In this document: positions 8,989 through 45,613 of the stretch, in pieces
How the letters are laid out: each line of letters begins with the position of its first letter
Numbering within the stretch: position 1 is the first letter of the stretch
Source of the DNA: Raillietiella orientalis
Taxonomy: Eukaryota
Reading direction: 5' to 3'
Length of the DNA: 64,000 nucleotides
Assembly: GCA_036172245.1 (NCBI GenBank)
Contig: JAYWIR010000032.1
Location: 1-64,000, forward strand
Made by a program: the position numbers and the translations under genes
Notes under the pieces: model-generated
The model's input: the letters and a program-made list of their open reading frames with translations, nothing else
The model's database searches: none
Told to the model about the DNA's origin: nothing

Positions 8989-11900
8989 TTCTCACCCGGT
9001 AACGCAAAGGCGTTTACTCCATATAACATAAAGAAAAAACAATTATATAAAACAAACCAGTTGGGAACCAAGCTTTCAATAGCCGGCTGAACAAGAATGA
9101 AAAGAATATTGCTGGCACGCAGGCCAGAGTAACAGTTTTGCGAACGGTGTGGGGGGGCGGGGAACACAAAGAAACCAAAATAAAATAGAAACAATGAATA
9201 ACGAAGACCGGATAAGGGTCTTTGGGATCGCTCTGGGAGACACGGGGATAGAAGCATGGGCACCGGAAATTTTACCAGGCGAACGGGGACGGGATATTGG
9301 TGGGCGAGAGGTCGAAGGGTTTACCGGATTACGCCATTCTCAAAGGTCTGTAAACCGAAGATGTATGCCAGTGATGTCCTCTCCCACATTGTCACAAAGA
9401 TGAGACCACCTTGAAGCCTTTCTTATGAATTGAGCTGCAAGCAGGTGAGCCTCTTTTCGCTGCGCTGACAACTCCAGGGCGTAGCGGGCCTTCACGATAG
9501 CGCGAACGCAACGTATAGTTGCGACAATCCCGCCAAGCGAAAGTCCATTTCTGCTTAAGAAGCGCCGCAGCACATGAATGGCAGTGCCCCCTTGTGGCAT
9601 GATGCCCGAAGTGAGCCTTCGCAACAGTTCCCGGAGGTCACCGCAGTTTAGCAAAAGGTGCGGAAAAGACTCGATCTCCACGCACCTTAAACAGTTTGGC
9701 GAAGCAGCTCCCCCGGAAACGATGCTTCGCTGCCTATTACAGTGTAATGCACAATGATAAAAGAGCAGCACATCTTGTTTCCAATTTAGGGGTTAACACG
9801 GAGCTGTCCAAACAAACGAAGGGAACTACTATCTCATCGGGGAGCACACTTAAATGTTTGCTTCACCGACGGAGGCCCTTCGCCCGATTCCGAGGAGTGG
9901 CGGCTTGCACCAGCTCCTTTGTCGTCCAGCTGACGAGGAGCTTACTGACTGCTTCTATTTTGTAGGAGAACTCCCATTCCGCCAATAGGCAACCGTCGTT
10001 GCTTGTTGTGAGGGCAGATAGCGCTGCGGCGAGTGGTTTGTCGGGCAGACTATCCGACATCTTCCTGTCCTGCATGACTTCGTCCATTTGATGACTGAGG
10101 AGAAGTCGCAGGCGTCGAAGATCTTCCTGGCGCGTTCCTTCGGAAGCTGCCCATGATGAAAAAGATTCCTGCCGCCATGCATTAATGTTCATGGGGCGGT
10201 AGGAGATCAAACATTGGGCTTTCAGCAGTGAGGACAGCTGCCTCAGCGGGAAGCCAAACCCTATACTGGTGTGCCGAAAGTGGGGTAGCAACGAAAGCAG
10301 TATCTCGCTTCCCGTGCAGCGCCTCAGTATAGGGCGTGCGGGTAAGCACCACGGCGTACACCACAGCTAGGCACAGAGCCGCAGCATGCGAAACTGCACC
10401 TGCAGTTCGATGCTGTTTAAGTCGAGGATGCCCAAGCCTGAATCCTGACGAGGCGCCACCAAGTATTTAAGTCTAACACGGGATCTTGCAGAGCCCCACA
10501 ACGCTTTGCGTAGAAGGCGCTGCGCCCAGACTTTGACTTCCTGGCGAATGGATAAACAAAAAACAGAGGGCAGCGGCGGGGGGGAACGAAGGTGTTTCAG
10601 ATGCAGGCCCAATCCGGCAAGACCAACTCGCCTCATCAGAACGCGCCAAGTGAACGCTCTGCCTTCCAAAGGCAGTCCGACCACGCTTCTGAGATGCAGA
10701 ATTCGGCCAACGGCACCCCAAGGACATGAAGTACCTGCCCTTGGGGATCTTCAGACCGATCCAGTCGGACTGCCCCTCCCACGTTGCACTTACTGCAACA
10801 ACCATACACTTACTCCTCTGAACGCTCACGCAATCACCGCGACGTATCAACCTAAAGAAGTCTTCAAACGATGTCGCCGATGTGGACATGGGAAACAGGA
10901 GTAGCAGGTCGTCGGCATAGGCTTCCACAGCCGGCGTACCTGAAGAGAAGCTCGGCAGGTTGAATAGCGTCAGCCTGTAAGCCTTAAGCACAAATTCAAA
11001 TCAGATGCTCAAGAGCAGCGGGCTTAAGCTATCACCCTCCCTAATTTCTCGTCGTGCCGGCACTTCGTATAGGCGACAGCCACTGAAAACAATTAATGTA
11101 ATTGCGTGACGCCAGCAGGAGCGCAAGTACGCCAACAGGGATGCCGGAAAACCCAGACGTTCCAAAAGCTCAAGAAGAAGCTTTTGGTTCACGCAATCGA
11201 AAGCTTTGTTCAAATCGACGGCAACCGCCAAGGCTCCCAGAGTCTCCCTTTGCGTCCTGCGCCTCCGTCGGTGAGAGATTGAAGGCGTCGCTTCCGCACG
11301 ACGATCCACCGCCACACGATGCTGAAATTGCAGTTATGTGCGGATGAACAAGAGATTTGCGTCCATGGACCGCCCAGGAACAGCGTACGTCTGCTCCGGA
11401 CTTAGCAAGGATTCCGCGATCCTACCCATCCGCGCCACCCAAAGTTTCGAGAACAACTTGACGTCCGAATTCACTAATGTGATCGGACGCCAGTTATTCA
11501 GTTGGCGCAAATCTCCGCCTTTCGGCAGTAGACGCACCTTCGCTGAGCGAAACGAGGCGGGGACATCACCCGAGTCTCGCATCAGCGACGAGAGTTGGAG
11601 CACCAGGGGGATGAGCTCCGCCGCAAAACACTGGAAGAATTCCGCGGGGAGCCCATCTTCGCCTGGCGCTTTTCGTCTCTTGAGCCCCGAGATGGCCGAC
11701 GAAATTTCCTCTGCCGTGAAGGGCTTATCAAGACGTGCGCGTTCCTCCTCGTCTACAACAGGTGCATCAATCGGCAGAAGCAGCCGGGAGAGGCTGCGTT
11801 TCATCGGTGCCTCTGCATACAGAAAAGAGTAATAGCGCCTGATTATCCGTCGCTCGTCGGCTAGAGCCGAGCATTCGCGGTCCTGGTCGTCGAGCAGAAC

Positions 11901-12107
11901 TGTCGCCCCTGAATGCCAGACCTGGCGCTCAGCCTTGGCCTTGTACTCGGATAATCGACCAAAGTCCGCGCGCCTGGAAAAGGTGCCGGCCTGCAGAAAA
12001 TCTCTGCTGTTGGCTACAACCACTCCAAAGCAGCGCGGAAGCTGATGCAAGGGAAAGTGGCAGCAGAACTCGCGGACCGATCTTTTCAGATCGTCGCAGT
12101 CCTCGAG
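8989..12107 (-). mobile_element. Element S: E-subfamily copy retaining the 3' two-thirds of ORF2 (pseudogenised) and a complete 3' end
   Basis: ORFs 11334-12116, 11001-11315, 10473-10991 (YADD), 9863-10291 and 9340-9771 match the E1/E2 ORF2 closely; the 3' UTR matches 19810-20160; terminus CCGGGTGAGAA. Confidence 0.92.
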
Positions 12108-13938
12108 AGAAAGCAAACGGGTTTTTGTTTCGTTCTTGAGCGTTTGTGGTTTTATTTTTTTTTCTTTTTTTTTTGGTGTGCCAGTGAATTCGGTGGTGGC
12201 TAGGCAGCAATGCCTGGGACCATCACCAATGTTAAGAAGGGGGCAACGTCTATGTCTCCTCCTGAATCAATGGATGTGGGGGCAACCGCCCCCAGAGAAG
12301 CGACTCCCTCGCTAGGGAGAAGCTGGAGTTCCTTGGCTGCGGCGCCAACGCAAGCGGTTGCGCCTGAGTTGAAAGCCTACCTGGAGGAGGGGTACAATCC
12401 CCCTCTACTCTACAAGGTAGGTAACCTTTACTTATTAAAGAGTGCACGCGCTTTCTCGAAAGTGATGCACTCCCTCAAAGTACCACAGAAGGAGCTCTAG
12501 GCGATGACCATCAGTAGTGGTGAAAAGTACGTTGAGGTGATTTGCAAAGAAGCAAGTCTTGCCCAGCGTCTTTCTCCGTACACCTGTTCCTTTAGGGAAT
12601 CGCCGGCTGCTGCTCATCACGGAGGATAGATCTATCGTTATCCACTTCCTTGGAATCACCTTCCCGATGGCCGAAGAGGCTGTCCGAAAGAAACTAGTTA
12701 AATTTGGAACTGTCCACGCGTTGTGGAAAAGGACGACTCCGTTTTGGGAGTACGATCTCCTAAATTGCGGTATGGCTTCCGCGCTTCACGGTCCGCGAAA
12801 GTTGCTCCCTACCTAACAAGCTGGAGGTCAACGGCGAACCCGTTGACATCTGGCGGGCATTGCAGCACTTCAGTTCACCTGAAAAAAAGGTGCCCTCACT
12901 TGCAGTGCAAGCAATGCAAGCCACCCGGGCACTCTCTTTCAGTGTGCCCGCAAAATGAAGTCCGCGTCGCGTCCGCACGGAATGCGAAGAAGCGCGCGGC
13001 GAGAAAAAGACGAGTTCAGGTAGCCCCAGAGAGAGCCGCCGCTCGAAAAACAACTATCGTGCCCCAGGTGAAGCTCAGCTCCGAGATCATGGAAAACTCG
13101 GACAAGGTCGAGGAGAACGGCCAGGAACCTGGATGGCAGGTAGTAAATTCCAAGAGGCAGGAAAGCCTCAAGGAAGGGAAAAAAAATGTCGCGAAACGCA
13201 GCCAGAATTTGCCGCGTCGCGAAAATATCAAACGCTGCTCTGTCGTCATCAAGCGCATCCCTGCGGTCGAACAGAGCGGCAAAAGTGCACTTTTCGGTGT
13301 CCACTTTCAGCCCTCCGGCAAATTAATCCCGGAGGCTATCGACCCGGCGGTAACGTCCGTCGTCGAACTCATGCTCGACGACGTCGCCTTTGAGCGAGCG
13401 CCGGAGGAGCTCGCTGCGTCCTTGCAGCGTCCCCTGAAATCCGCGAAAAAGCCTCAAAGCGTCCGACGTCGATCAAGAAGTCGGAGATTACGAACTCTGA
13501 CGCAGAGGCGGAAAACACAGCCTCCGGCATCGCGGCCTCCCGCCCGAAGGCCAATCGCACGAAGAAGGCTACCCGCAAAATTATCCCGTCCGTGGAAAAG
13601 GGAGAGATAATTGAGGGAAACGAGCGTGCCAATAAAGTGGGGAACTACGGGGACTCTCTTCGAAAGGTAACCTCAAGCTGCGACTTCGGACGGATGGAAA
13701 GGGTAGAGTCTGTGCCCCAGGTGCTTCAATTGCCTGAGATGGCCGCGGTCCGCTTACTCGTCCCTCCCACCTGTCCGTTGACAGGTGCTGGAACGCCACG
13801 TTCCCAGCCTTGATGCGGGAATCGCCTCTTGCCGCCGTCTGCTAATTGCCTTTTGGAACGTCAAGGGGCTATGCGACGACGGCAAGAGACGAGACGTGGC
13901 CTCCACCCTGACATCCTTCGACCTGGTACTGCTGCAAG
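12108..13938 (+). mobile_element. Element H, 5' segment: 5' UTR, broken ORF1 (12210-13813) and ORF2 start up to FDLVLLQ; interrupted by the E1-E2 dimer
   Basis: MDVGA...YNPPLLYKVG...GTVHALW, knuckle CKQCKPPGHSLSVC, TGATG at 13811-13815, then MRGIASCRRLLIAFWNVKG...FDLVLLQ. Confidence 0.88.
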
Positions 13939-14203
13939 CCCAACCGACGACTGAACAAGAATGAAGAGAATATTGCTGGCACGCAGGCCAGAGTAACAGT
14001 TTTGCGAACGGTGTGAGGGGGCGGGAAACACAAAGAAACCAAAATAAAATAAAAACAATGAATAAGGAGGACGGGATAAGGGTCTTTGGGATCGCTCTGG
14101 AAGACACGGGGATAAAAGCATGGGCACCGGAAATTTTACCGAGCGAACGGGGACGGGGTATGGGTGGGCGAGAGGTCGCAGGGGTCACCGGATTACGCCG
14201 TTC

Positions 14204-17200
14204 TCAAAGGTGTGTAAACCGGCGATGTATGCCGGTGATGTCCTCATTCACCTTGTCACGAAGATGAGACCACCTTGAAGCCTTCTCCATGAATTGAGCT
14301 GCAAGCAGGTGAGCCTCCCTTCGCTGCGATGACAACTCCAGGGCGTAGCGGGCCTTCACGATGGCGCGAACGCAACACATGGTTGCGACAATCGCGCCAA
14401 CCGAAAGTCTATTTCTGCTGAAGAAGCGCCGCAGCACATCAATGGCAGTGCCTCCTTGTGGCATGATGGCCGAAGTGAGCCTTCGCCACAGTTCCCGGAG
14501 GTCACCGCAGTCCAACAAAAGGTGCGGAAAAGACTCGATCTCTCCGCACCTTAAACAGTTTGGCAAAGCAGCTCCCCCGGAAACGATGCTTCGCTGCCTA
14601 TTACAGTGAAATGCACAATGTAAAAAGAGGAGCACATCTTGTTTCCACTTAAGGGGGAACACGGAGCTGTCCAAACAAACGGGGGGAACCACTATCTCTC
14701 CGGGGGGCACACTTAAATGTTCGCTCCACAGAAGCAGTCCCTTCGCCCGATTCCGAGGTGTGGCGGCTTGCACCAGCTCCTTTGTCGTCCAGCTGCCGAG
14801 GAGCTTACTGACTCCCGCTATTTTGCAGGAGAACTCCCATTCCGCCGGTAGGCAACCGTCGTTGCTTGCCCTGAGGGCAGACAGCGCTACGGCGAGTGGT
14901 GTGGCGGCCAGACGATCCGACCACTTCTTGTCCTGCATGACTTCGTCCATTTGATGACTGAGGAGAAGTCGCAGGCGTCGAAGATCTTCCGGGCGCGTTC
15001 CTTCGGAAGCTGCCCACGATGAAAAAGATTCCTGCCGCCATGCATTAATGTTCATGGGGCGGCAGGAGATCCAGCTGTGGGCTTCCAGCAGTGAGGACAG
15101 CTGCCTCAGCGGGAAGCCAAACCCTATTCTGGTGTGCCGAAAGTGGGGTAGCAACGAAAGCAGTCCCTCGCTTCCCGTGCAGCGCCTCAGTATAAGGCGT
15201 GCGGGTAAGCACCACGGCGTACACCACAGCTTGGCACAGAGCCGCAGCATGCGAAACTGCACCTGCAGTTCGATGCTGTTTAAGTCGAGGATGCCCAAGC
15301 CTGCATCCTGACGCGGCGCCACCAAGTCTTTAAGTCTAACACGGGATCTTGCAGCGCCCCACAACGCTTTGCGTAGAAGGCGCTGCGCCCAGACTTTGAC
15401 TTCCTGGGGGGGTGGACAAACAAAAAACAGGGGGCGGAGGAGGGGGGCAACGAAGGTGTTCCAGATGCAGGCCCGTTCCGGCAAGACGAACTCGCCTCCT
15501 GAAAACGGGCTAAGTGCACGCTCTGCCTTCCGAAGGCAGTCCGACCACGCTTCTGAGACGCAGAAGTCGCCCAACGGCACGCCAAGGTACCTGAGGTACC
15601 TGCCCGTGGGGATCTGCAGGTCGATCCAGTCGGACTGCCCCTCCCACGTCGCACCAACCGGAACAACCATACACTTACTCCTGTTAACGCTCACGCCCGC
15701 ACCACGACGGATAAACTCGAAGAAATCTTCAAGCGACGCTGTCGGGGTGGACATGGGCAACAGGAGAAGCAGGTCGTCGGCATAGGCTGCTACGGCGGGC
15801 GTACCTGGACAGGAGCTCGGCAGGTTGGCTAGCGTCAGCCTGTAAGCCTCCAGCACCAATTCAAAATAGATGCTGAAGAGCAGCGGGCTTAAGCTGTCAC
15901 CCTGCCTAATTCCTCGTCGTACCGGCACGCCGTACACGCGACAGCCACTGAAAACAATGGATGTAATCGCGTGGCGCCAGCAGGAGCGCAAGTACGCCAA
16001 CAGGGATGCCGGAAGACCCAGACGTTCCAAAAGCTCAAGAAGAAGCTTTTGGTTCACGCAATCGAAAGCTTTGTGCAGATCGACTGCAACCGCCAAGGCC
16101 CCAGGTGTCTCCCTTTGCGTCCCGCGCCTCCGTCGGTGAGAGATCGAAGGCGTCGCTTCCGCACGACGATCCACCGCCACACGATGCTGCAATTGCAGCC
16201 ATGTGCGGATGAACAAGAGATTCGCGTCCATGGACCGCCCAGGAACAGCGTACGTCTGCTCCGGACTTACCAAGGATTCCGCGATCCTACCCATCCGCGC
16301 CACACAAAGTTTCGAGAACAACTTGACGTCCGAATTCACTAATGTGATCGGACGCCAGTTGTTCAGTTGGCGCAAATCTCCGCCTTTCGGCAGTAGACGC
16401 ACCTTCGCTGAGCGAAACGAGGCGGGGACATCGCGCGAGTCTCGCATCAGCGACGAGAGCTGGAGCACCCGAGGGATGAGCTCCGCCGCAAAACACTGAA
16501 AGAATTCCGCGGGGAGCCCATCTTCGCCTGGCGCTTTTCGTCTCTTGAGCCCCGAGATGGCCGAGGAAATTTCCTCTGCCGTGAAGGGCTCATCAAGACG
16601 CGCGCGTTCCTCCTCGTCTACAACAGGTGCATCAATCGGCAGAAGCAGCCGGGAGAGGCTGCGTTCCGTCGGTGCCTCTGCATAAAGAGAAGAGTAATAG
16701 CGCCTGACTATCCGTCGCACGTCGGCTGGAGCCGAGTATTCCCGGTCCTGGTCGTCGAGCAGAACTGTCGCCCCTGACTGCCAGACCTGGCGCTCGGCCT
16801 TGGCCTTGTACTCGGATAATCGACCAACGTCCGCGCGCCTGGAGTAGGAGCGGGCCTGCAGAAAATCTCTGCTGTTGGCTACGCCCTCTCCGACGCCGCG
16901 CGGAAGCTGGTGCAAGGGAAACCGGCAGCAGAACTCGCGGACCGATCTTTTCAGATCGTCCCAGTCCTCGAGCTCACTTATGGCAAAGCCGAGGAGGTAC
17001 TGGCGAAGATGCTCAGCCGCCTCCGGGTGGCTTAGCCAGTCTGCCGGCATCCTCCAAAAACAGTTTGGAGGCCCCTTGCCTGGCGGGAGCAACTCGCACT
17101 CGAGCCTGTTGTGGTCTGAAAGCACGGACGGCACGGGACCTCTCCGACCCACTCGACAGAGCAAGTGTTCATCAAGGTATACGTGGTCCGGCGTTGCTGC

Positions 17201-17779
17201 CATAACAGGGTCGCTAGCGAACAAGTTGCACGCGTGCACGGACGCGCACATCTCTTCCGCTAGCAACTTTTCCCTTTTGTGGGATCTATTCTCGGAAAGC
17301 AGGTGGACGTTAAAGTCCCCCGCAATGAGATGGGCCACAGTAGGGTGAGATCGAGTGAGCCACTGGCCTTGAAGGGTACCGAAGAACTCAATCCTTTCGG
17401 CCCATCGTCCAGCACCGCTAGGCGCGTACACGTTGGTTACGACAAGGTCGATCGAGTCGGACCACTTGAGTACAAGCTGTCCCACTCGGCCTTCCGTGTC
17501 GAAACGAACGCTGCGCACCGCTCCCGCCAAAGTTCCTCGCACGAGGAAAGCGACGCCGCACGTACGTGCAACGCCGCACCTATAAAGTAGCGTTCCGCCC
17601 GCGCGCCGTTCGATTTCGGCAGCCTGCTCTCCGGAGATGCTGTGAATCTCCTGCAGGAGCGTCAAGTCGAAGGCGCGCAGAGCGTCAGCCACTAGTCGCC
17701 TCTTCTCCTCGTGTTGGAGCCCGTTGACGTTCCAAGACGTTACGGCAACACGACGAGAAGACGCGATTGCCCTCCTCAC
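14204..17779 (-). CDS. E1 ORF2: APE endonuclease, reverse transcriptase and C-terminal Cys/His finger (1191 aa, uninterrupted; GTG start)
   Basis: WNVNG, LLQE, NVYAP, AGDFN, SDH; KAPGEDG, NWRPITL, DLHKAFD, QGDSLSP, YADD, YLG; CLRC...E...H...C. Confidence 0.95.
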   Translation of the reverse strand: MRRAIASSRRVAVTSWNVNGLQHEEKRRLVADALRAFDLTLLQEIHSISGEQAAEIERRAGGTLLYRCGVARTCGVAFLVRGTLAGAVRSVRFDTEGRVGQLVLKWSDSIDLVVTNVYAPSGAGRWAERIEFFGTLQGQWLTRSHPTVAHLIAGDFNVHLLSENRSHKREKLLAEEMCASVHACNLFASDPVMAATPDHVYLDEHLLCRVGRRGPVPSVLSDHNRLECELLPPGKGPPNCFWRMPADWLSHPEAAEHLRQYLLGFAISELEDWDDLKRSVREFCCRFPLHQLPRGVGEGVANSRDFLQARSYSRRADVGRLSEYKAKAERQVWQSGATVLLDDQDREYSAPADVRRIVRRYYSSLYAEAPTERSLSRLLLPIDAPVVDEEERARLDEPFTAEEISSAISGLKRRKAPGEDGLPAEFFQCFAAELIPRVLQLSSLMRDSRDVPASFRSAKVRLLPKGGDLRQLNNWRPITLVNSDVKLFSKLCVARMGRIAESLVSPEQTYAVPGRSMDANLLFIRTWLQLQHRVAVDRRAEATPSISHRRRRGTQRETPGALAVAVDLHKAFDCVNQKLLLELLERLGLPASLLAYLRSCWRHAITSIVFSGCRVYGVPVRRGIRQGDSLSPLLFSIYFELVLEAYRLTLANLPSSCPGTPAVAAYADDLLLLLPMSTPTASLEDFFEFIRRGAGVSVNRSKCMVVPVGATWEGQSDWIDLQIPTGRYLRYLGVPLGDFCVSEAWSDCLRKAERALSPFSGGEFVLPERACIWNTFVAPLLRPLFFVCPPPQEVKVWAQRLLRKALWGAARSRVRLKDLVAPRQDAGLGILDLNSIELQVQFRMLRLCAKLWCTPWCLPARLILRRCTGSEGLLSLLPHFRHTRIGFGFPLRQLSSLLEAHSWISCRPMNINAWRQESFSSWAASEGTRPEDLRRLRLLLSHQMDEVMQDKKWSDRLAATPLAVALSALRASNDGCLPAEWEFSCKIAGVSKLLGSWTTKELVQAATPRNRAKGLLLWSEHLSVPPGEIVVPPVCLDSSVFPLKWKQDVLLFLHCAFHCNRQRSIVSGGAALPNCLRCGEIESFPHLLLDCGDLRELWRRLTSAIMPQGGTAIDVLRRFFSRNRLSVGAIVATMCCVRAIVKARYALELSSQRREAHLLAAQFMEKASRWSHLRDKVNEDITGIHRRFTHL

Positions 17780-19680
17780 GGCTGGGAAAGCGAGGCCGTG
17801 GTGCTCGCCTCACCCGGCGAGCGGGCAGTAAGCAGCACGACGGGCTGGAGGGCGCGGTCGCCACCGGCCTCAACTGTGCTGCACGTAATCGGGTGCTCCT
17901 CCCCGGGTGCAGAACCTGTGGGTTCCGGGGTGAGCACTCGCCGTTCCGCGGCGAGTGTGTCACGCCTCAGGGCTTCAGCCCCGCGGGCGCTCGCTCCCGC
18001 GCGAGTTACGCGTCGTTCAGCTGCGTTATCGGACTCCTTTGCGAAGTCTGATGCTCGCACGATCGACGTGCGCTTGCATCCGTCCGATTGCACCGGAATG
18101 GTCTTCTCGGCGGTCACAGAAGCGGACTTGCACGCGTTGAAGGCGTTGGCTTTTTCCTTGGACGAGTCACAAGCCGCGCGTGTTTTCGTATTCGCGCGAC
18201 TGCTTTTTCCTTTGGAAGAGCTCAGGGATGGAGGTTGCGGAGCTTTCTTTGGAGATTTTTCTTTCCTCCTCTCCACAACCTTCCATTCGCCTTCGCTATT
18301 TTCGGAAGCTTCCGCGACAGTAGTTGCGGAAACCTCCGGGATTTTCGCTGCGTTCTCTGGGGGCGTTGCTTTCGCTACGCCTTTAAAAGGCGGCAACGGA
18401 GTCACCTTCTTGACAGTCGGGAGATTGCTCCTCTCCTGCCGAGTCGGCGATGGGGCGACTGCATGCAGCGTGCTTTTGCTCGTTGCGACGCTGCTTTTTA
18501 CGGCTTTCGTAGCCTTTGCAGTGGGGCCTGCGCTGCAGTGGGGCTGTCCGGAACTCGGAAGGGACAACGGAACGGGGCAAGAAGTCTTCGCACTGTTGCG
18601 ATCTTCCTGTTTTCCTACCTTTCCCTCCAGGGTGTTACAGAGATTTCCTGGTTCCAGGTTCGGAAAGGTGCCTGCGAGTTCGGCAGAGAGGGAAGGCACG
18701 GCACGTGTCAAACCCTCGCGCCCCTTTTTAATTGGCTTCCCCGCCGTGACTTTCCCCTTTCGGGGCGTTGCGGGCGGGGATGCTTTCTTTTTATCCGCGG
18801 ATCGCTCGTGGTTTTTTTCGAGTTTTTGCGGACGACGTTTTTTATTTGCCGCTGCGGCTTTTCGTGCAGTGGTCTCTTGAACCCGACGAATTTCCGCTGC
18901 GGCTCTTTTTCTTGCAAGTACCGGGCACTTCTTGATTTTGTGCCCGGAATCTTTGCAATAGCGGCATCTTGGAGAGGGGCACTCTTTAATTCGGTGCCCA
19001 TCCTTGCCGCACTGCTCGCACGCGCGAGTCTGGCCTATGAACCACAGGTGAACGACCGTGCCGTTCACCTGCAGCTGCTCAGGCACAACACGCCTGTTCG
19101 CGACGGTGATCCGCGCGGAGGCTTGTCCAATGTGGACAGAGGGGAAATCCTTTAGAGGATTTGGCCTCCTCCACAGAGCGTGCACGGTGGCGAACTTCGC
19201 CAGCACACTTACGACATCGCGGTCGGAGATTTCCGGTTCGATGTCGCACAATTGAACGACAAAAGAGTCGTCCATCGCGGTAGGTAGGACTTCCTTGCCA
19301 TTGATGGTCAACGGCGTACGGAGAAGGCGCTGCACAAGTGCTGCGTTCTTGCACCGAATCTTCGTATATTCCATCCTGCCAGCAGGCATTATGGCAAGGA
19401 GTTCCTCCTCGCGAACGCCGATCCGGACGAGCTCCTCATTGAGCTCACGACGGATTTACTTGTTAAGGGGCCAACTGACCTTATGACGGAGTGCTGGCAT
19501 GTATCCTGATGACACATACGCCTGGAACTCCGCATCGCAGGGTCCTGGTCTTTGGGAGGTAACTGCGGCGTAACTCCTCACCGGGGGCGAGGAAACCATT
19601 ACGGAGGATGCGGCCGCTTCAAGTGCAGCTGAAGTGCATCCAGTGGCTTGCTACTCCACACAATCCTGTGTACTGGCCAT
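17776..19680 (-). pseudogene. E1 ORF1 (gag-like nucleic-acid-binding protein with two CCHC knuckles), one in-frame TAA at 19456-19458
   Basis: ATG at 19680 is homologous to the E2 ATG at 25646; knuckles CEQCGKDGHRIKEC and CRYCKDSGHKIKKC; open from 19455 to 17776. Confidence 0.85.
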
Positions 19681-19786
19681 GTTGCACTATGCTACTTGGC
19701 AGATTGCACAGGAACTTACAATTGCGAGCAAAGACGCAGGCACAAAGTTGCCCGATCGTTGGCGCGGATAGATGCGGAAACACATC

Positions 19787-19809
19787 TGCACTGTACGAGC
19801 GCAAGAGAT
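19787..19809 (+). repeat. Target-site duplication, left copy (TGCACTGTACGAGCGCAAGAGAT), lying between E1 and E2
   Basis: Direct repeat of 25753-25775 (21/23 identical). It is derived from the APE coding sequence of element H. Confidence 0.88.
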
Positions 19810-20163
19810 TTCTCACCCGGTCACGCCGGGGCGTTTATTCCATATAACATAAGCAAAAAACAGCAATTATACAAAATAAACCAGTTGGAAACCAAACTCT
19901 CAACCGACGACTGAACAAGAATGAAGAAAATATTGCTGGCACGCAGGCCAGAGTAACAGTTTCGTGAACGGTGTGGGGGGGCGGGGACCACAAAGAAACC
20001 AAAATAAAATAAAAACAATGAATAAGGAGGACGGGATAAGGGTCTTTGGGATCGCTCTGGAAGACACGGGGATAAAAGCATGGGCACCGGAAATTTTACC
20101 GAGCGAACGGGGACGGGGTATGGGTGGGGAAGAGGTCGCAGGGGTCACCGGATTACGCCGTTC

Positions 20164-23100
20164 TCAAAGGTCTGTATAAATGCGATGTATGCCGGTGATG
20201 TCCTCATTCCCCTTGTCACGAAGATGAGACCACCTTGATGCCTTCTCCATGAATTGAGCTGCAAGCAGGTGAGCAACCCTTCGCTGCGCTGACAACTCCA
20301 GGGCGTATCGGGCCTTCACGGTGGCGCGAACGGAACACATGGTTGCGACGATCGCGCCAACCGAAAGTCCATTTTTGCTGAAGAAGCGCCGCAGCACATC
20401 AATAGCAGTGCCTCCTTGTGGCATGATGGCCGAAGTGAGCCTACGCCACAGTTCCCGGAGGTCACCGCAGTCAAGCAAAAGGTGCGGAAAAGACTCGATC
20501 TCTCCGGCACGGCAAAGCAGACCCAATAAACCAGCTCCCCGGGAAACGATGCTTCGCTGCCTATTACAGTGAAATGCACAATGTAAAAAGAGCAGCACAT
20601 CTTGTTTCCACTTAAGGGGGAACACGGAGCTGTCCAAACAAACTGGGGGAACCACTATCTCTCCGGGGGGCACACTTAAATGTTCGCTCCACCGAAGCAG
20701 TCCCTTCGCCCGATTCCGAGGTGTGGCGGCTTGCACCAGCTCCTTTGTCGTCCAGCTGCCGAGGAGCTGACTGACTCCCGCTATTTTGCAGGAGAACTCC
20801 CATTCCGCCGGTAGGCAACCGTCGTTGCTTGCCCTGAGGGCAGACAGCGCTACGGCGAGTGGTGTGGCGGCCAGACGATCCGACAACTTCTTGTCCTGCA
20901 TGACTTCGTCCATTTGATGACTGAGGAGAAGTCGCAGGCGTCGAAGATCTTCCGTGCGCGTTCCTTCGGAACCTGCCCACGATGAAAAAGATTCCTGCCG
21001 CCATGCATTAATGTTCATGGGGCGGCAGGAGATCCAGCTTTGGGCTTCCAGCAGAGAGGACAGCTGCCTCAGCGGGAAGCCAAACCCTATTCTGGTGTGC
21101 CGAAAGTGGGGTAGCAACGAAAGCAGTCCCTTGCTTCCCGTGCAGCGCCTCAGTATAAGGCGTGCGGGTAAGCACCACGGCGTACACCATAGCTTGGCAC
21201 GGAGCCGCAGCATGCGGAACTGCACCTGCAGTTCGATGCTGTTTAAGTCGAGGATGCCCAAGCCTGCATCCTGACGCGCCGCTACCAAGTCTTTTAGTCT
21301 AACACGGGATCTTGCAGCGCCCCACAACGCTTTGCGTAGAAGGCGCTGCGCCCAGACTTTGACTTCCTGGGGGGGTGGACAAACAAAAAACAGGGGGCGG
21401 AGGAGGGGGGCAACGAAGGTGTTCCAGATGCAGGCCCGTTCCGGCACGACGAACTCGCCTCCTGAAAACGGGCTAAGTGCACGCTCTGCCTTCCGAAGGC
21501 AGTCCGACCACGCTTCTGAGACGCAGAAGTCGCCCAACGGCACGCCAAGGTACCTGAGGTACCTGCCCGTGGGGATCCCCAGGTCGATCCAGTCGGACTG
21601 CCCCTTCCACGTCGCACCAACCGGAACAACCATACACTTACTCCTGTTAACGCTCACGCCCGCACCACGACGGATCAACTCAAAGAAATCTTCAAGCGAC
21701 GCTGTCGGGGTGGACATGGGCAACAGGAGAAGCAGGTCGTCGGCATAGGCTGCCACGGCGGGCGTACCTGGACAGGAGCTCGGCAGGTTGGCTAGCGTCA
21801 GACTGTAAGCCTCCAGCACCAATTCAAAATAGATGCTGAAGAGCAGCGGGCTTAAGCTGTCACCCTGCCTAATTCCTCGTCGTACCGGCACGCCGTACAC
21901 GCGACAGCAACTGAAAACAATGGATGTAATCGCGTGGAGCCAGCAGGAGCGCAAGTACGCCAACAGGGATGCCGGAAGACCCAGACGTTCCAAAAGCTCA
22001 AGAAGAAGCTTTCGGTTCACGCAATCGAAAGCTTTGTGCAAATCGACTGCAACCGCCAAGGCTCCCGGTGTCTCCCTTTGCGTCCCGCGCCTCCGTCGGT
22101 GAGAGATCGAAGGCGTCGCTTCCGCACGACGATCCACCGCCACACGATGCTGCAATTGCAGCCATGTGCGGATGAACAAGAGATTCGCGTCCATGGACCG
22201 CCCAGGAACAGCGTACGTCTGCTCCGGACTTACCAAGGATTCCGCGATCCTACCCATCCGCGCCACCCAAAGTTTCGAGAACAACTTGACGTCCGAATTC
22301 ACTAATGTGATCGGACGCCAGTTGTTCAGTTGGCACAAATCTCCGCCTTTCGGCAGTAGACGCACCTTCGCTGAGCGAAACGAGGCGGGGACATCGCCCG
22401 AGTCTCGCATCAGCGACGAGAGTTGGAGCACCAGGGGGATGAGCTCCGCCGTAAAACACTGAAAGAATTCCGCGGGGAGCCCATCTTCGCCTGGCGCTTG
22501 TCGTCTCTTGAGCCCCGAGATGGCCGAGGAAATTTCCTTTGCCGTGAAGGGCTCATCAAGACGCGCGCGTTCCTCTTCGTCTACAACAGGTGCATCAATC
22601 GACAGAAGCAGCTCGGAGAGGCTGCGTTCCGTCGGTGCCTCTGCATACAGAGAAGAGTAATATCTCCTGACTATCCGTCGCACGTCGGCTGGAGCCGAGC
22701 ATTCCCGGTCCTGGTCGTCGAGCAGAACTGTCGCCCCTGACTGCCAGACCTGGCGCTCGCCCTTGGCCTTGTACTCGGATAATCGACCAACGTCCGCGCG
22801 CCTTGAAAATAAGCGGGCCTGCAGAAAATCTCTGGTGTTGGCTACGCCCTCTCCGAAGCCGCGCGGAAGCTGGTGCAAGGGAAACCGGCAGCAGAACTCG
22901 CGGACCGATCTTTTCAGATCGTCCCAGTCCTCGAGCTCACTTATGGCAAAGCCGAGGAGGTACTGGCGAAGATGCTCAGCCGCCTCCGGGTGGCTTAGCC
23001 AGTCTGCCTGCATCCTCCAAAAACAGTTTGGAGGCCCCTTGCCTGGCGGGAGCAACTCGAACTCGAGCCTGTTGTGGTCTGAAAGCACGGACGGCACGGG

Positions 23101-23742
23101 ACCTCTCCGACCCACTCGACAGAGCAAGTGTTCATCAAGGTATACGTGGTCCGGCGTTGCTGCCATAACAGGGTCGCTAGCGAACAAGTTGCACGCGTGC
23201 GCAGACGCGCACATCTCTTCCGCTAGCAACTTTTCCCTTTTGTGGGATCTATTCTCGGAAAGCAGGTGGACGTTAAAGTCCCCCGCAATAAGATGCGGTA
23301 CAGTAGGGTGAGAACGAGTGAGCCACTGGCTCTGAACGGTACCGAAGAACTTAATCCTTGTGGCCCATCGTCCAGCACCGCTCGGCGCGTACACGTTGGT
23401 TACGACAAGGTCGATCGAGTCGGACCATTTGAGTACAAGCTGTCCCACTCGGCCTTCCGCGTCGAAACGAACGCTGCGCACCGCTCCCGCCAAAGTTCCT
23501 CTCACGAGGAAAGCGACGCCGCACGTACGTGCAACGCCGCACCTATAAAGTAGCGTTCCGCCCGCGCGCCGTTCGATTTCGGCAGCCTGCTCTCCGGAGA
23601 TGCTGTGAATCTCCTGCAGGAGCGTCAAGTCGAAGGCGCGCAGAGCGTCAGCAACTAGTCGCCTCTTCTCCTCGTGTTGGAGCCCGTTGACGTTCCAAGA
23701 CGTTACGGCAACACGACGAGAAGACGCGATTGCCCTCATCAC
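20164..23742 (-). CDS. E2 ORF2: APE endonuclease and reverse transcriptase (1192 aa, uninterrupted; probable ATG at 23739)
   Basis: All APE and RT motifs as in E1. The CxxC of the C-terminal finger is altered (LLCRAGE). Confidence 0.95.
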   Translation of the reverse strand: MMRAIASSRRVAVTSWNVNGLQHEEKRRLVADALRAFDLTLLQEIHSISGEQAAEIERRAGGTLLYRCGVARTCGVAFLVRGTLAGAVRSVRFDAEGRVGQLVLKWSDSIDLVVTNVYAPSGAGRWATRIKFFGTVQSQWLTRSHPTVPHLIAGDFNVHLLSENRSHKREKLLAEEMCASAHACNLFASDPVMAATPDHVYLDEHLLCRVGRRGPVPSVLSDHNRLEFELLPPGKGPPNCFWRMQADWLSHPEAAEHLRQYLLGFAISELEDWDDLKRSVREFCCRFPLHQLPRGFGEGVANTRDFLQARLFSRRADVGRLSEYKAKGERQVWQSGATVLLDDQDRECSAPADVRRIVRRYYSSLYAEAPTERSLSELLLSIDAPVVDEEERARLDEPFTAKEISSAISGLKRRQAPGEDGLPAEFFQCFTAELIPLVLQLSSLMRDSGDVPASFRSAKVRLLPKGGDLCQLNNWRPITLVNSDVKLFSKLWVARMGRIAESLVSPEQTYAVPGRSMDANLLFIRTWLQLQHRVAVDRRAEATPSISHRRRRGTQRETPGALAVAVDLHKAFDCVNRKLLLELLERLGLPASLLAYLRSCWLHAITSIVFSCCRVYGVPVRRGIRQGDSLSPLLFSIYFELVLEAYSLTLANLPSSCPGTPAVAAYADDLLLLLPMSTPTASLEDFFELIRRGAGVSVNRSKCMVVPVGATWKGQSDWIDLGIPTGRYLRYLGVPLGDFCVSEAWSDCLRKAERALSPFSGGEFVVPERACIWNTFVAPLLRPLFFVCPPPQEVKVWAQRLLRKALWGAARSRVRLKDLVAARQDAGLGILDLNSIELQVQFRMLRLRAKLWCTPWCLPARLILRRCTGSKGLLSLLPHFRHTRIGFGFPLRQLSSLLEAQSWISCRPMNINAWRQESFSSWAGSEGTRTEDLRRLRLLLSHQMDEVMQDKKLSDRLAATPLAVALSALRASNDGCLPAEWEFSCKIAGVSQLLGSWTTKELVQAATPRNRAKGLLRWSEHLSVPPGEIVVPPVCLDSSVFPLKWKQDVLLFLHCAFHCNRQRSIVSRGAGLLGLLCRAGEIESFPHLLLDCGDLRELWRRLTSAIMPQGGTAIDVLRRFFSKNGLSVGAIVATMCSVRATVKARYALELSAQRRVAHLLAAQFMEKASRWSHLRDKGNEDITGIHRIYTDL

Positions 23743-25646
23743 GGCTGGGAAAGCGAGGCCGTGGTGCTCGCCTCAGCCGGCGAGCGGGCAGTAAGCAGCA
23801 CGACGGGCTGGAGGGCGCGGTCGCCACCGGCCTCAACTGTGCTGCACGTAATCGGGTGCTCCTCTCCGGGTGCAGAACCTGTGGGTTCCGGGGTGAGCAC
23901 TCGCCGTTCCGCGGCGAGTGTGTCACGCCTCAGGGCTTTAGCCCTGCGGGCGCTCGCTCCCGGGCGAGTTACGCGTCGTTCAGCTGCGATATCGGACTCG
24001 CCCACCGCAAAGTCTGATGCTCGCACGATCGACGTGCAGCTTGCTCCGTCCGATTGCACCGGAATGGTCTTCTCGGCGGTCACAGAAGCGGACTTGCACG
24101 CGTTTAGGGCGCTGGCTTTTTCCTTGGAAGAGTCACAAGCCGCGCGTGTTTTCGTATTCCCGCGACTGCTTTTTCCTTTGGAAGAGCTCAGGGACGGAGG
24201 CTGCGGAGCTTTTTTTGGAGATTTTTCTTTCCTCCTCTTCACAACCTTGCATTCGCCTTCGCGATTTTTCGGTGATGCGAAAAATTACAGATTGCGGATT
24301 AACATCTTCCACCTTTGCGTTCTCTGGGGGCGTTGCTTTCGCTACGCCTTTAAAAGGCGGCAACGGAGTCACCTTCTTGACAGTCGGGAGATTGCTCCTC
24401 TCCTGCCGAGTCGGCGATGGGGCGACTGCATGCAGCGTGCTTTTGCTCGTCGCGACGCTGCTTTTTACGGCTTTCGTAGCCTTTGCAGAGGGGCCTGCGC
24501 TGCAGTGGGGCTGTTCGGAACTCGGAAGGGACAACGGAACGGGGCAAGAAGTCTTCGCACTGTTGCGATCTTCCTGTTTTCCTACCTTTCCCTCCAGGGT
24601 GTTACGGAGATTTGCTGGTTCCAGGTTCGGAAAGGTGCCTGCGAGTTCGGCAGAGAGGGAAGGCACGGCACGCGTCAAACCCTCGCGCCCCTTTTTAATT
24701 GGCTTCCCCGCCGTGACTTTCCCCTTTCGGGGCGTTGCGGGCGGGGATGCTTTCTTTTTATCCGCGGATCGCTCGTGGTTTTTTTCGAGTTTTTGCGGAC
24801 GACGTTTTTTATTTGCCGCTGCGGCTTTTCGTGCAGTGGTCTCTTGAACCCGACGAATTTCCGCTGCGGCTCTTTTTCTTGCAAGTACCGGGCACTTCTT
24901 GATTTCGTGCCCGGAATCTTTGCAATAGCGGCATCTTGGAGAGGGGCACTCTTGAATTCATGCCCCTCCTTGCCGTACTGCTCGCACGCGCGAGTCTGGC
25001 CTAAGAAACACAGGTGTATGAGCGTGCCTTTCACCTGCAGCTGCTCAGGCACAACACGCCTGTTCGCGACGGTGATCCGCGCGCAGGTTTGTCCGATGTG
25101 GACAGAAGAGAAATCCTTGAAAGAGTTCGGCCTCCTCCACAAAGCGTGCACGGTGGCGAAATTCGAGAGCACGCTGACAACATCGCGGTCGGAAATTTTC
25201 GGTTCGATTTCGCACAATTGAACGACAAAAGAGTCGTCCATCGCGGTAGGTAGGACTTCCTTGCCATTGATGGTCAACGGCGTACGGAGAAGGCGCTGCA
25301 CAAGTGCTGCGTTCTTGCACCGAATCTTCGTATATTCCCTCCTGCCAGCAGGCATTATGGCAAGGAGTTCCTCCTCGCGAACGCCTATCCGGACGAGCTC
25401 ATCATTGAGCTCACGACCGATTCTCCCGTTAAGTGGCCCACTGACCTTATAACGGAGTGCAGGCATGTATCCTGATGACACATATGCCTGGAACTCCGCA
25501 TCGCAGGGTCCTGGTCTTTGGGAGGTAACGACGGCGTAACTCCTCACCGGGGGCGAGGAAACCATTACGGAGGATGCGGCCACTTCAAGTGCAGCTGAAG
25601 TGCATCCAGTGGCTTGCTCCTCCACACTATCCTGTGTACTGGCCAT
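23739..25646 (-). pseudogene. E2 ORF1, frameshifted near 24960 and disturbed near 24260-24315
   Basis: Pieces 24675-25646, 24133-24678 and 23739-24242 are collinear with E1 ORF1. Confidence 0.85.
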
Positions 25647-25752
25647 GTTGCACTATGCTACTTGGCAGATTGCACAGGAACACACAAGTGCGAGCAAAAA
25701 CGCAGGCACAAAGTTGCCCGATCGTTGGCGCGGAAAGACGCGGAAACACGTC

Positions 25753-27301
25753 TGCACTGTACGAGCGCGGGAGATCGAGCGTATCTGGGGTGGAAGGCTG
25801 CTGTGGCGTTGCGGCACCGTTAAATCTTGCGGTGTCGCGTTCCAGCTTCGTCCAGCTGTCGAGGCTGCGGCAAAAAGCGTAGGGTTCGATAGTGCCAGTC
25901 GCGACGGGCAGTTGACCATCAGGTGGTCCGACTCCACCGATCTGGTCATTACCAACGTGTACGCTTTAAGAGGCAGCGACGCGCTAAGAGCAAAGTTAAG
26001 GAGAAATTTCTTTCTTACCCTGAGGCGCGAATATCTAGACGAAGCGGGAGTGCGCAAAGCGAACCTAATCGCAGGAGACTTTCACCTGCGCCTGCTGTCA
26101 GATTCGTGCGACACACTTCGGGACCGCGTGAACGAGCTGTGCGCAAAGATGCACACGCGCAACTTGTTCGCAAGAGCTACGAAAATGGCCGAAAGCATAG
26201 ATCACGTGTTTCTGGACCAGCACCTATGCTCAGGCGTGGGCAGGCGCGGCAAGATACCGTCGAAACTGTAGGACCATGACCGGATCGTACTCCAGGTGCG
26301 CACACGCGATAGGGGTCCGCGTCATCTTCGTGGCGCTTACCGGGCGACTGACTGAAACTTCCGGAAGCCCCGGAGCATCTCCGCGGTTTCATACGAGGTT
26401 TTAGCTTAAGTCGCTTCAGGACTGGGACCGTTTCAAGCGCTCGGTCCGGAAATTTTTGCGACGTGTTCCCTATGAACCTCCTGCCTGCCGGGTTTTGTGG
26501 GAACGTGCGTAACGAGAGATAGTAATTACAATCTCCATGTTACGCGCGAACACCAGACGTACACAGGCTAACCGAATACTGGGCGGGAGCCGAGAGGCAG
26601 GCGTTGCAATCCGGGTCGGCCAGCTTACTGGACGACCAGAGTTCGGAGCACTCGGCCCCCGCCCAGGTGAAAGGCATCTTAAAAATTTCTACTCCTCCCT
26701 GTACGCGCGCGCTTCACCGAAACGGGATGTCTTGCGAGTCCTTCTTCCGGAGGGCGCTCCGGGGATCGGGGAGGAAGATAGAAAGACCCTCGACGAGCCT
26801 TTAACGATGGGCGAGATCATCTCGGCCATCGGAAAGCACAAGAGGCGAAAGGCTCCAGGAGAGGATGGCCTGCCAGAAGAATTTTTTCAATGTTTCGCGT
26901 AAGAGCTCACTCCTCTGGTGAACAAACTCACCTAGCTGATCCGCGAAACGGGAGACGTCCCCGCCTCGTTTCGTTCGGCAAAACTGCGTCTCCTCCCTAA
27001 GGCAGGAGACCTTCGTAGCATGAGTAAGAGGCGGCTAATTACCGTGATAAACGCGGACACCAAGTTGCTGGCAAAATTGCCGATTAACGGAAATCTTCAT
27101 TAGCCCGGAGCAGACATATGCTGTTCCCGTGCGGAGCATGGATGCCAACATGTTCCTCGCTAGCACCTCTTCGCGCTTCAACAGGAAAGGGTCAGGAAGG
27201 GCAACCGGACTTCCGGAATGTCCGCTGCTAGGAAACGGGATGGTTGGAAGGGAGGGGGAGGGAGCCCTCGCAGACGCAGTCGATTTGCATAAAGCATTCG
27301 A
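25753..27301 (+). mobile_element. Element H, second segment: remainder of APE, linker and RT up to DLHKAFD (pseudogenised); begins with the right TSD copy 25753-25775 and is interrupted by T
   Basis: AREIERIWGGRLLW...NVYA...AGDFH; KAPGEDGLPEEFF; DLHKAFD. It continues the reading broken at 13938. Confidence 0.87.
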
Positions 27302-30300
27302 TTTTCACCCGGATTTCGCCGGGGCGTTTATTGTAAAATAAACTTTTACAAATACGTGCGGTGGCTGGACCATTGCTGCAGCCACGCACGAAAAAACACA
27401 GAGCCTGCCGGGTCACCGGTTCGCAGACAGGTACGGTCCACAACGGAAGCAGGGGGAAGGGGGAAAACCAAAAAACACAACAAAAAAGATAAGAAAAGTT
27501 CGGAGGGTAAGGGAAGGGATCACAGTTGCTGGTGGGGCCGTAGCATCCTTTGCAGAATGCCGGCAAGCTCCTTCTGTATTCCTGTATCCAGGTGGGGCCA
27601 TCGGGACGCCCTCTTCAGGAACTGGGAGGCTGGCTGGATGGCACCCTGGTCGCGTTGTCCTCCCGTAGCCTTGCTCCTAGCGGTGACAATCCCGCGTAGG
27701 CAGCACAAAGCTGCTAACGAGGTCACTAACCGAAGGGCGTCGGCAACGAAGAGGGCTTTCAGTGCGTCCCTGGAGTTGCCGCAGGGGATTCCGATGGCAG
27801 CGGCAAAGCGAAACCAAAGGGGCCGAAAGGCAACACAATCCACTAGCAGGTAAGGGAGGGACTCCCGTTCCCCACACCTGACGCAATTGGGGTCCACCGC
27901 TCCCCAGGTCCACTGGTGTCGGCGGGCGTCGCAGGGTAGTCCCCAGTGCTGCAACCGGAGAGCCAACTCCTGCCATTTTAAGTGGAGGGCGGAAGTGTTC
28001 ATGAGCACCGGGGGCTACTTCGGATGTTCAATGGGAACATCGAGCAGCGCGCCCCAGCGCAGAAGTCCATTGAGAGGCGTACTCGGAGTCGCAGTGTCTG
28101 TTAACTGGCCCGTCTTCCACTCTCCTAACTTCTTCTCCTTTCCGGAGATTGTTACTGTAACCACCCACTTCGCCGCAACATCGCTGTCCAGATCTTCCAT
28201 CAGGAAGGGCAGCGCAGCTCAAGGGGGGTTATTCCTGCCCACGCTCTCTTCTTTGGGTCCTCCAGGATCTCGCGAAGCGTGCAACTTCTGTAACCCCCAA
28301 ACAGGAACATTCGTTCCTGTTGGGAGCGTTGCATGCCGAACTGTCCCCATGTTCGAACGGTTTCCTGCAACCAGGCACTACCATTGAAAAGGCGACAGGT
28401 GAGCAATCCTGGGTTTTTGCGATACAGCGCAGCCACCCTCGGTAGCTGGAGTCCGCATCGGTTGGCGCGGCGACGGAGTGCAAGAAACGACGTCAGCCCG
28501 GTCTTGCCGGTGGGTTGCTGGAGAAGGAGACGTGCAGACACGAACCAACAGGTACACAACAACTCTGGAACGAGTGCCGACAATCGGAACTGGAGCTCCA
28601 GCCGCTCCAGCGTCAGGAGGCTCAGACCACCATCCTGACGAGGAGCGCACAAGTCCTTTAAGCGGACTCGGGCCGAGTCGTTGCCCCAAAGGGCGATACG
28701 GAGGAGGCCTTTTGTCCTCTTTTTAATTCTCTCTGTGGGGGGGCAGACAAAAAGCAGGGGGCGGAAAAGAGGAGCCGCGAACGTGTTTCAAACCGCGGGC
28801 CGTTCAGGCAGGAAAAACCTCACGCCTCGGAACGAGCCGTTCGCCGTCTCTGCTTTTTGGAGGCAGCCGGACCACGCTTCGGCAGGGGAGAAGTCCCACA
28901 ACGGCACACCAAGGTACTTGAAGTACCTCACCTTGGGGATCCACAAACGGACCCAGTCCTGCTGCCCTGCCCACGCCGCACCAACTGGCATCATGGACGA
29001 CTTCGCCCTGTTCACCGTAAACACGGTTCCTCGATTCAGCAGGTCGAAGAACTTCTCGACCGCCCAAGCCGGGGTGGACATAGGAAGCAGTAACAAGAGG
29101 TCGTCCGCATATGCTGAAACCGCAGGCGTTTCGGCGCATTCATGCGGCAGGTGCGCCAGAGTTTCCCTGTACGCTTTCAGTACCAACTCAAAGTAGGTAC
29201 TGAAGAGCAAGGGGCTCAGGCTGTCTCCTTTCCGGATCGAACGTCGCACCGGCACGCCGTGAACAGTATGCCCGCTGAAAGTAACATTGATTCTCGCTTT
29301 GTATTCCGCCATCCTACGGATGTCGGGGGTCCTGGCGTAACGACCGGCCTGCAGATAGGCTCGTTCGTCACGTACTGCGTCCTGAAATCCCGCAGGTAGG
29401 CGGTGCAGAGGGAACTGGTCGAAGAACTTCTGGACCGACCGCTTGAAGCGGTCCCAATCCTGGAGTGTCCGCAGCCTGAAGCTCCGTATGAACGTGCGGA
29501 GATGTTCCGCCGCACATGGGAACTTCAGTCAGTCCCATGGCAAACGCCACACTGACGAGGGGGGGCCCTTATCGCGCGGAAGAATTTCAATAACAATGGG
29601 TCGATGGTCGGACAACCCGCACGGTAACTTGCCGCGCCTGCCCACGCGAGGGCACAGGTGCTCGTAAGGAAACACGTGATCAATGCTGTCTTCCTTCCCC
29701 GGTGCACTGGCCAACAAATTACAGGTGTGCACCGCCATGCACACCTCGTTTACCAGGTCACGCTCGGGATTCTGCCCATCTGGTTTCAGGCGAACGTTTA
29801 AATCGCCTGCAACCAGATGGGCATTCCGGACGCCTGCTTCGGTCAGCCAGTCTCGGCGGAGGGCAAGGAAAAACTTTTTCCTCGCCCTCCTAGTCATCAG
29901 GTCCGCGCCGCTCAGTGCGTACACGTTCGTGACGATCAGATCGATCGAGTCGGACCACCTGAGAGTGAGCTAGCGGAGACGACCGTGATCGTCGAACCGC
30001 ACCCCCCGAGCCGTCGCCTCGACGGCTGGCCGAAGCAGGTAGGCGACACCGCAACTTTTCGCTCTCCCACACCTGTATCATAGCCGCCCTCCGGAAATCC
30101 GTTCGATCTCTTGTGCTTGTTTTGTAGAAATCAAGTGGATCTCCTGCAGCAGCGCAAGGTCGTAGGACACCAGAAGGGCGACCATGTCTCTTCTCCTGCC
30201 GGCATCTGTCATGCCGTTCACGTTCCAAACGGCGATGCGCAGACGACGGCGGGAGGAGGTTACCGGCATTACTGCTGGGAAGATTAAGGTGTGGGGGAGC

Positions 30301-45605: not shown

Positions 45606-45613
45606 TGGTGTTG

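Follow-up and report, generated by a model that had tools for sequence, protein, structure and literature searches.

Head-to-tail copies of a site-specific L1-like LINE in Raillietiella orientalis: a dimer probably made by two insertions into the same site of a related element

How two copies of a retrotransposon come to lie head to tail with a single copy of their target between them is the question raised by a locus of Raillietiella orientalis. The window analysed is a stretch of 64,000 nucleotides (positions 1 to 64,000 of contig JAYWIR010000032.1, assembly GCA_036172245.1), and the two copies, E1 and E2, belong to a long interspersed nuclear element (LINE) here called E. An earlier note, made from the letters alone, had placed a head-to-tail E1-E2 dimer at 13939-25775, inside a host element H; the coordinates were right, and the arrangement was borne out by blastn, by global alignment and by the halves of H that flank the pair. 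The window contains a direct head-to-tail repeat of ∼5.9 kb (repeat families spaced 5960-5967 bp), and blastn aligned 13941-19809 with 19901-25775 at 95.99% identity over 5881 columns. Aligned globally, the bodies of 5849 and 5855 bp were 96.03% identical, with 232 substitutions and 14 columns of indels. Both units lie on the minus strand, within the region of the related, plus-strand element H that encodes its apurinic-type endonuclease (APE). By tblastn and translation the halves of H are collinear in one frame resembling the second open reading frame (ORF2), with residues 4-43 at 13818-13937 and residues 52-573 (EIERIWGG...) from 25762. Two separate insertions of E into the same H site are, at a probability of about 0.68, the best account of this structure, whose parts are as follows (TSD, target-site duplication; RT, reverse transcriptase; a caret marks a nick or junction).

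13818-13938, plus strand: 5′ half of host element H, APE-coding residues ∼4-43, ending ...FDLVLLQ (CTGCTGCAAG); found by tblastn with E ORF2 and by translation.
13939-13940: the dinucleotide CC where H meets E1, its origin uncertain; E1 and E2 are homologous from 13941 on.
13941-19789, minus strand: E1, 5849 bp, with a full 5′ end and without the 91-nt 3′ tail.
19790-19809, plus strand: left target copy TSD_L, ACTGTACGAGCGCAAGAGAT, H-type APE-coding sequence (...AQEI) ending at the nick site GAGAT^.
19810-19900, minus strand: 3′-terminal tail of E2, with an A/U-rich hairpin, AAUAAA and a CCCGG/CCGGG stem-loop, ending ...GGGUGAGAA.
19901-25755, minus strand: E2 body, 5855 bp (whole E2 with its tail, 19810-25755).
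25756-25775, plus strand: right target copy TSD_R, ACTGTACGAGCGCGGGAGAT, with two of its 20 bases unlike those of TSD_L, and reading in frame into H.
25776-27299, plus strand: 3′ side of H, from EIERIWGG... to the RT motif AVDLHKAFD, at which the 3′ end of another minus-strand family, c30257-, interrupts it.
8989-12107, minus strand: E3, a third, 5′-truncated E copy, 92% identical to E1, with its tail at 8989-9077; used as outgroup and as an independent 3′ junction.
8834-8988, plus strand: H2, the host of E3, of another family, APE-coding residues ∼5-55, ending ...SAEQAQK (GAACAAGCGCAAAAGAC^) at the E3 tail.

From left to right the order is thus H, E1, target copy, tail and body of E2, target copy, H. 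The units had been thought to be parted by the TSD alone; in fact 111 bp separate the bodies, made up of one 20-bp target copy (19790-19809) and the 91-nt, A/T-rich tail of E2 (19810-19900). Exactly one TSD copy stands between the units, in the order E1 5′ end, 20-mer, E2 tail.

Both ends of E could be placed by comparison with other copies. The 91-nt tail of E2 also ends E3, and it is continuous with the 3′ untranslated region (UTR) of E in record 8 of the Logan contigs, which is another genomic copy. In RNA sense its terminus reads ...AAUAAACGCCCCGGCGUGACCGGGUGAGAA. The terminal motif (AATAAA, a CCCGG/CCGGG stem, GGGTGRNAA and no poly(A)) is common to seven elements of seven families in the window, at the following sites.

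Terminal-motif sites: 4860-4885, 19810-19842, 27300-27332, 33937-33975, 41800-41835, 51170-51205 and 54515-54548.

Since the tail recurs at E3 and in contig record 8, and since the terminal motif ends six other elements, 19810-19900 is taken as the true 3′ terminus of E2. The stem of the motif is mutated in E3, and the copy of element c1237+ is cut short. The shared 3′ motif is likely to be what the RT recognizes throughout this LINE group. An Rfam search over 13500-26200 returned three matches, all with expectation values of ∼0.9 and far under the gathering scores, and so no ribozyme or known RNA at the ends. Metagenome matches to a 17-nt tail pattern (94 loci) were put down to chance, blastn/tblastn similarity to E being found at 0 of the 94.

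The 5′ boundary was set with the help of a sister family (c45602-, 41800-47443) that is bounded by a 10-bp TSD, CGCAGTGACG (41789-41798 and 47444-47453). Its 5′ end begins GCAGACGTGTTTC, which E2 carries at 25743-25755. The 13-mer GCAGAYGTGTTTC (Y at position 6) matches the window exactly three times, at the 5′ end of c45602-, at 19777-19789 in E1 and at 25743-25755 in E2; with up to two mismatches allowed there were six matches, of which these three, all at element 5′ ends, were the only exact ones. The homology between E and c45602- starts exactly at the first G of the 13-mer. Because this motif is shared with the TSD-bounded 5′ end of c45602-, the 5′ ends of E1 and E2 were set at 19789 and 25755, which makes the duplicated target 20 bp long. 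The duplication had been given before as 23 bp; with this boundary it becomes ∼20 bp, still longer than the 10 bp of the sister family, so that the accompanying claim of a TSD longer than in other families held. Two other boundaries were considered and dropped. The idea that at least 33 bp of the E 5′ end are captured host DNA gave way to the boundary at the 5′ motif, the alignment not being significant: when the final 200 nt of E1 and E2 were aligned freely and locally with the APE 5′ coding DNA of 10 copies, z was at most 2.1. A 13-bp TSD, deduced from a contig break at 19796, rested on evidence that was too indirect.

The 20-mer target occurs twice in the window and in none of 100 shuffles, and its right copy reads in frame into H (...AREIERIWGG). 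The tails of E2, E3 and contig record 8 join ...GCGCAA(G/A)AGA(T/C)^ in three different hosts, that is, at all three of the tail-bearing 3′ junctions, a count that excludes the aberrant junction of E1. The left flank of E3 in H2 (GAACAAGCGCAAAAGAC^) is identical to that of E2 at 13 of 17 bases in a fixed register (P = 1.2 × 10⁻⁵), and in contig record 8 the tail is joined to ...GCAGAACAAGCGCAAGAGAT^. E is antisense to its host in all three. One nick position across three hosts means that E is site-specific at ...GCGCAAGAGAT^C; judged by these junctions, E is a non-LTR (non-long-terminal-repeat) element that is site-specific, with a predicted plus-strand nick at ...GAGAT^C, in agreement with what had been proposed for it. 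Two unoccupied look-alike targets are present in the window, at 30103-30117 (1 mismatch) and 55267-55281 (3 mismatches). The APE codons ∼53-55 of E itself (17615-17623 and 23578-23586) read ...GCTGCCGAAATCGAA, and the targets read ...GCGCAAGAGATCGA; E may in this way spare its own sequence while striking sibling LINEs.

The comparison of the two units bears on whether they were inserted separately. Unequal exchange after a single insertion predicts sister units with equal, neutral and even divergence, and the divergence found was of another kind. In ORF2 there were 43.2 synonymous and 70.8 nonsynonymous differences between E1 and E2 (dN/dS 0.53) and no stop codons. A neutral simulation, in which the 113 observed substitutions were placed at random with the observed spectrum, gave 29.3 ± 4.7 synonymous changes (P(≥43) = 0.005) and 4.3 stop codons (P(0) = 0.013). 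The differences ran from 6 to 45 per 450 bp (chi-square, p = 5 × 10⁻¹⁵); the substitutions noted before are therefore present along the two units, but they are not evenly scattered. With E3 as outgroup, 26 changes over 3036 columns were private to E1, 72 to E2 and 219 to E3, a departure from equal rates in E1 and E2 (relative-rate binomial p = 3.7 × 10⁻⁶). Logan contigs aligned to E1 had a word depth of 8-17× compared with ∼5× on the unique flanks, and so represent further E copies. Among those listed, six of seven were nearer to E1 than E2 is (contig versus E1/E2 versus E1 differences of 5/35, 7/11, 5/18, 1/5, 12/35 and 26/56, the exception being 16/13); parts of E2 were without contig cover. 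The unequal, non-neutral and patchy divergence, together with contigs nearer to E1, makes it unlikely that E1 and E2 are exclusive sisters. The earlier note had preferred independent insertion to unequal crossover, had named dN/dS between the two ORF2s as a check, and had held that sister units with neutral divergence would speak for crossover; the check favours its preference, the divergence being non-neutral and the branches unequal.

From what was observed, namely how the dimer is built, that E is site-specific, and that its units have diverged unequally and not neutrally, we infer both the steps of insertion and their order. The endonuclease of E would nick related LINEs in their APE-coding region, on the sense strand, at the site given above, near codon 55, and E would be copied there in antisense by target-primed reverse transcription. 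A second-strand cut ∼20 bp upstream would then produce the 20-bp target duplication. Two E RNAs of somewhat different lineages would have used the same site in H, and, each insertion retaining a usable target copy, the second event would give a dimer with one target copy between its units.

Several observations weigh against this account. One, passed over in the earlier note, concerns the outer (3′) junction of E1 (13938-13941), which has no tail and no left target copy and where ∼17 nt of H are missing: in sibling elements 33 nt lie between the Q codon and GAGATC, and here there are 16. When outer TSDs were sought, the right copy was present (25756-25775) and none was found to the left of E1, the 20-mer occurring only twice in the window. 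The textbook alternation of three target copies with two elements is hence incomplete, and an extra event is required. This may have been a deletion of ∼129 bp, at or after E1 insertion, that took the E1 tail, the target copy at the far left and ∼17 nt of H; no convincing microhomology was seen at the H/E1 junction. Alternatively, E1 may have initiated aberrantly, at a non-canonical nick and from a tail-less template, its 5′ end being resolved at the existing target copy. The private changes of E2 are also clustered, 40 of the 72 lying in the first 900 bp (elsewhere E1 has 18 and E2 32), a pattern that a mosaic or gene conversion would explain as well as greater age; conversion could mimic part of the divergence signals. 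E1 too is damaged, having lost its ORF2 AUG. The window holds three E copies, and the outgroup E3 spans the 3′ 3 kb only. A search of sequencing runs gave one match to the window (share 0.56) and two runs of the same study, with no RNA match among those listed. The Logan contigs are collapsed, come from short reads of one run, possibly of the window's own sample, and number 8 listed of 115 records; among those listed none bridges 19796-19798, leaving the junction of E1, target and tail without independent read support.

That last point, and the dense nest of repeats around the dimer, would suit an assembly artefact, in which a repeat was collapsed or expanded or two E loci were joined into a chimera. 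Against that, 232 sites and 14 indel columns distinguish the units, whose junctions are unique in each case, and the H halves resume collinearly (residues 43 and 52) in one ORF on the same strand, which a mis-join would not recreate, so that this explanation is the least probable of all. Hardly better placed is a single retrotransposition event in which the RT, having reached the 5′ end of one E RNA, switched to the 3′ end of a second one, or in which the template was concatemeric or a product of read-through. Non-LTR RTs are known to jump between templates, and this would yield two non-identical units in one step, but a jump would join them directly, while here a complete, host-derived 20-bp target copy lies between the E1 5′ end and the E2 tail; moreover, with cDNA primed at the canonical nick the left unit, E1, would carry a tail, which it does not. 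Unequal exchange between sister chromatids or homologues, or replication slippage between the TSDs, following a single E insertion and itself followed by decay, conversion and the 129-bp deletion, would deliver the same alternation of targets and elements. E1 and E2 are indeed mutually nearest among the three window copies, given the 219 changes private to E3, and their patchy divergence could reflect conversion tracts. Against this, 20 bp is very short for homologous exchange, the branch lengths are unequal, ORF2 shows constraint and has no stop where 4.3 were expected, six of the seven listed contigs are closer to E1 than E2 is, and duplication, conversion and deletion would all be needed together. 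We consider unequal exchange improbable, and two insertions remain the preferred account.

If there were two insertions, either order would yield the same layout, since a newcomer in the right target copy becomes the right unit and one in the left copy the left unit. The earlier note had E1 inserted first; the data lean to the reverse. The private coding changes of E2 (46 nonsynonymous to 20 synonymous) look neutral and those of E1 (13 to 11) constrained. With its greater number of private changes (72 against 26), this coding pattern, a frameshifted ORF1 and contigs nearer to E1, E2 is likely to be the older unit, and a later entry of E1 into the left target copy is the order that we favour, at odds not far from those of the two insertions themselves. 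On entering there, E1 would have met the E2 tail, not CGAG, on the downstream side of its target, and the rebuilding of GAGAT^CGAG that had been proposed as an intermediate step would be unneeded and may be wrong. Should this order be right, with E1 placed beside the E2 tail and a half-occupied site reused, it would tell on which target half the machinery depends: recognition would require only the sequence upstream of the nick.

The coding content of E was established from the following features.

13941-14203, minus strand: 3′-UTR of E1.
14204-17779, minus strand: E1 ORF2, open, 1191 aa, with Pfam matches to Exo_endo_phos (2.5 × 10⁻¹¹) and RVT_1 (3.1 × 10⁻²¹).
17776-19389, minus strand: E1 ORF1, open, 537 aa, with a zf-CCHC knuckle (6.8 × 10⁻⁵).
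19390-19789, minus strand: 5′-UTR of E1.
20164-23742, minus strand: E2 ORF2, open, 1192 aa, with Pfam matches to Exo_endo_phos (5.7 × 10⁻¹¹) and RVT_1 (1.4 × 10⁻¹⁹).

In E2, a 1-nt deletion at 24959 disrupts ORF1 (start equivalent at 25355), and indels of +2, +2 and -3 at 24284-24315 restore the frame. The ORF1 stop and ORF2 start overlap as UGAUG or UAAUG, which is kept in 7 of 11 other copies compared and reads UGAGG in E1; this conservation suggests a putative coupling of termination and reinitiation. The overlap (TGATG or TAATG) stands after TCCCAGC (17774-17780 in the window, and equivalents), and four copies of another subgroup are without it. An N-terminal apurinic-type endonuclease and an RT in ORF2 are the features of an APE-type LINE, and the 20-bp duplication flanking E2 and the truncation of E3 at 12107 are further LINE traits; repeat analysis of the window found no LTRs within one E unit. 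The best relatives of solved structure are human L1 ORF2p entries (PDB 8uw3, 8sxt and others), at expectation values of 7.7 × 10⁻⁴⁵ for the RT region and 1.3 × 10⁻⁵ for the APE domain. Among 8000 scored candidates, a search for protein homologues gave 39 proteins at or below 10⁻¹⁰, many of them with zf-RVT, at a best local identity of 28-31%; no close database relative of the E proteins was thus found, nothing in that set exceeding ∼28-31%. E is an L1-like LINE, with an ORF2 combining APE and RT, a CCHC ORF1 and a 3′ end without poly(A). Human LINE-1 ORF2p has the same order of APE, RT and C-terminal zinc motif; E differs from human LINE-1 in its CCHC ORF1, its UGAUG stop/start overlap and its structured 3′ end. 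The human element is not known to insert site-specifically; it ends in poly(A), and its ORF1 is of a different type.

Arrays of the R1 element in Drosophila offer the nearest parallel to the dimer. In the available text of McGurk & Barbash (2018; PMC5932611), R1 units are arranged head to tail and parted by 33 nt of duplicated rDNA; tandem dimers of R1 and other transposable elements (TEs) are ascribed there to two insertions in one target unit, insertion-site preference being the main cause of dimers. As far as that account goes, E resembles R1 as a site-specific non-LTR element in head-to-tail tandem with a short target duplication between units. It differs in that the target is sibling-LINE APE-coding sequence and not rDNA, that the element is antisense to its host, that the spacer is 20 bp, and that there are two units only, 4% diverged, with one outer junction damaged. 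The E dimer would thus be a known kind of event, an R1-like double insertion, and the nest of LINEs in each other's coding motifs is the more unusual feature. As such the dimer would be a clean, ordinary example of site-specific elements seeding tandem arrays, a first step towards TE-derived satellites, and for one family of the nest it establishes the target, where the nick falls, how long the TSD is, and which motifs stand at the 5′ and 3′ termini.

That nest extends over much of the window: tblastn with E ORF2 and ORF1 gave 44 segments of 32-100% identity, on both strands and spread over the greater part of the 64 kb. The 3′ end of c30257- (27299/27300) stands after the RT motif AVDLHKAFD^ of H; c49723+ (51205/51206) shares the orientation of its host, c51205+, and abuts the APE motif GD^FN there; c51205+ (54548/54549) follows ...LHRAFG^ of c55427-; c37788- (33937) follows ...EYSAAAE^ of c32863+; and c45602- (41799/41800), with its 10-bp TSD, lies in ORF1 of a c41231-type element. 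The sites seen are hence APE ...AQEI^, APE GD^FN, RT ...HKAFD^, ...LHRAFG^, ...EYSAAAE^ and one ORF1 site, four of the six insertions being antisense to the host. Families other than E are represented by one junction each, so that their fixed sites are candidates only. In a tentative picture to which we give somewhat less than even odds, five or more related L1-like families would each have a fixed insertion site of their own in a conserved coding motif of a sibling, and would form a self-feeding, TE-only island in which LINEs are mutual safe harbours. Literature searches turned up no account of LINEs that use the coding motifs of sibling LINEs as fixed targets, which for partly available sources is no proof of absence. 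In the accessible parts of the accounts of Zepp and ZeppL, L1-type LINEs of green algae are described as clustering by insertion into existing copies (PMC3446292, PMC8226300, PMC9940879 and PMC11005252). On that evidence the window is alike in being a nest of LINEs inserted in related LINEs, with junctions inside sibling coding sequence; the likeness is one of structure and does not imply clade membership. Fixed codon-level sites, multiple sibling families with their own sites, and 3′ ends without poly(A) do not appear in those parts of the Zepp/ZeppL accounts. The dimer bears on how LINE-only islands grow, for example the Zepp-type clusters proposed as algal centromeres, and the island seen here is possibly a centromere-type cluster.

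Other features of the nest were recorded. An inverted repeat of 3.8 kb (5175-8987 versus 33934-30107, 87.4% identity), whose alignment ends exactly at the E3 insertion point (8987/8988), contains a c6234/c32863-type 5′ part head to head with an H2/c30257-type ORF2 start; it could be either a segmental duplication or the result of repeated site-specific insertion at the same point. Three ORF1 N-terminal fragments, ∼1.2 kb apart on the minus strand, lie within 46595-49463 (46595-47044, 47696-48250 and 49023-49463), a stacking that would follow if elements entering ORF1 in the same orientation left the 5′ parts of their hosts piled up. Finally, the G+C content is 0.45 at 62001-64000 and 0.54-0.62 elsewhere in the window, a drop that may mark the edge of the LINE island.

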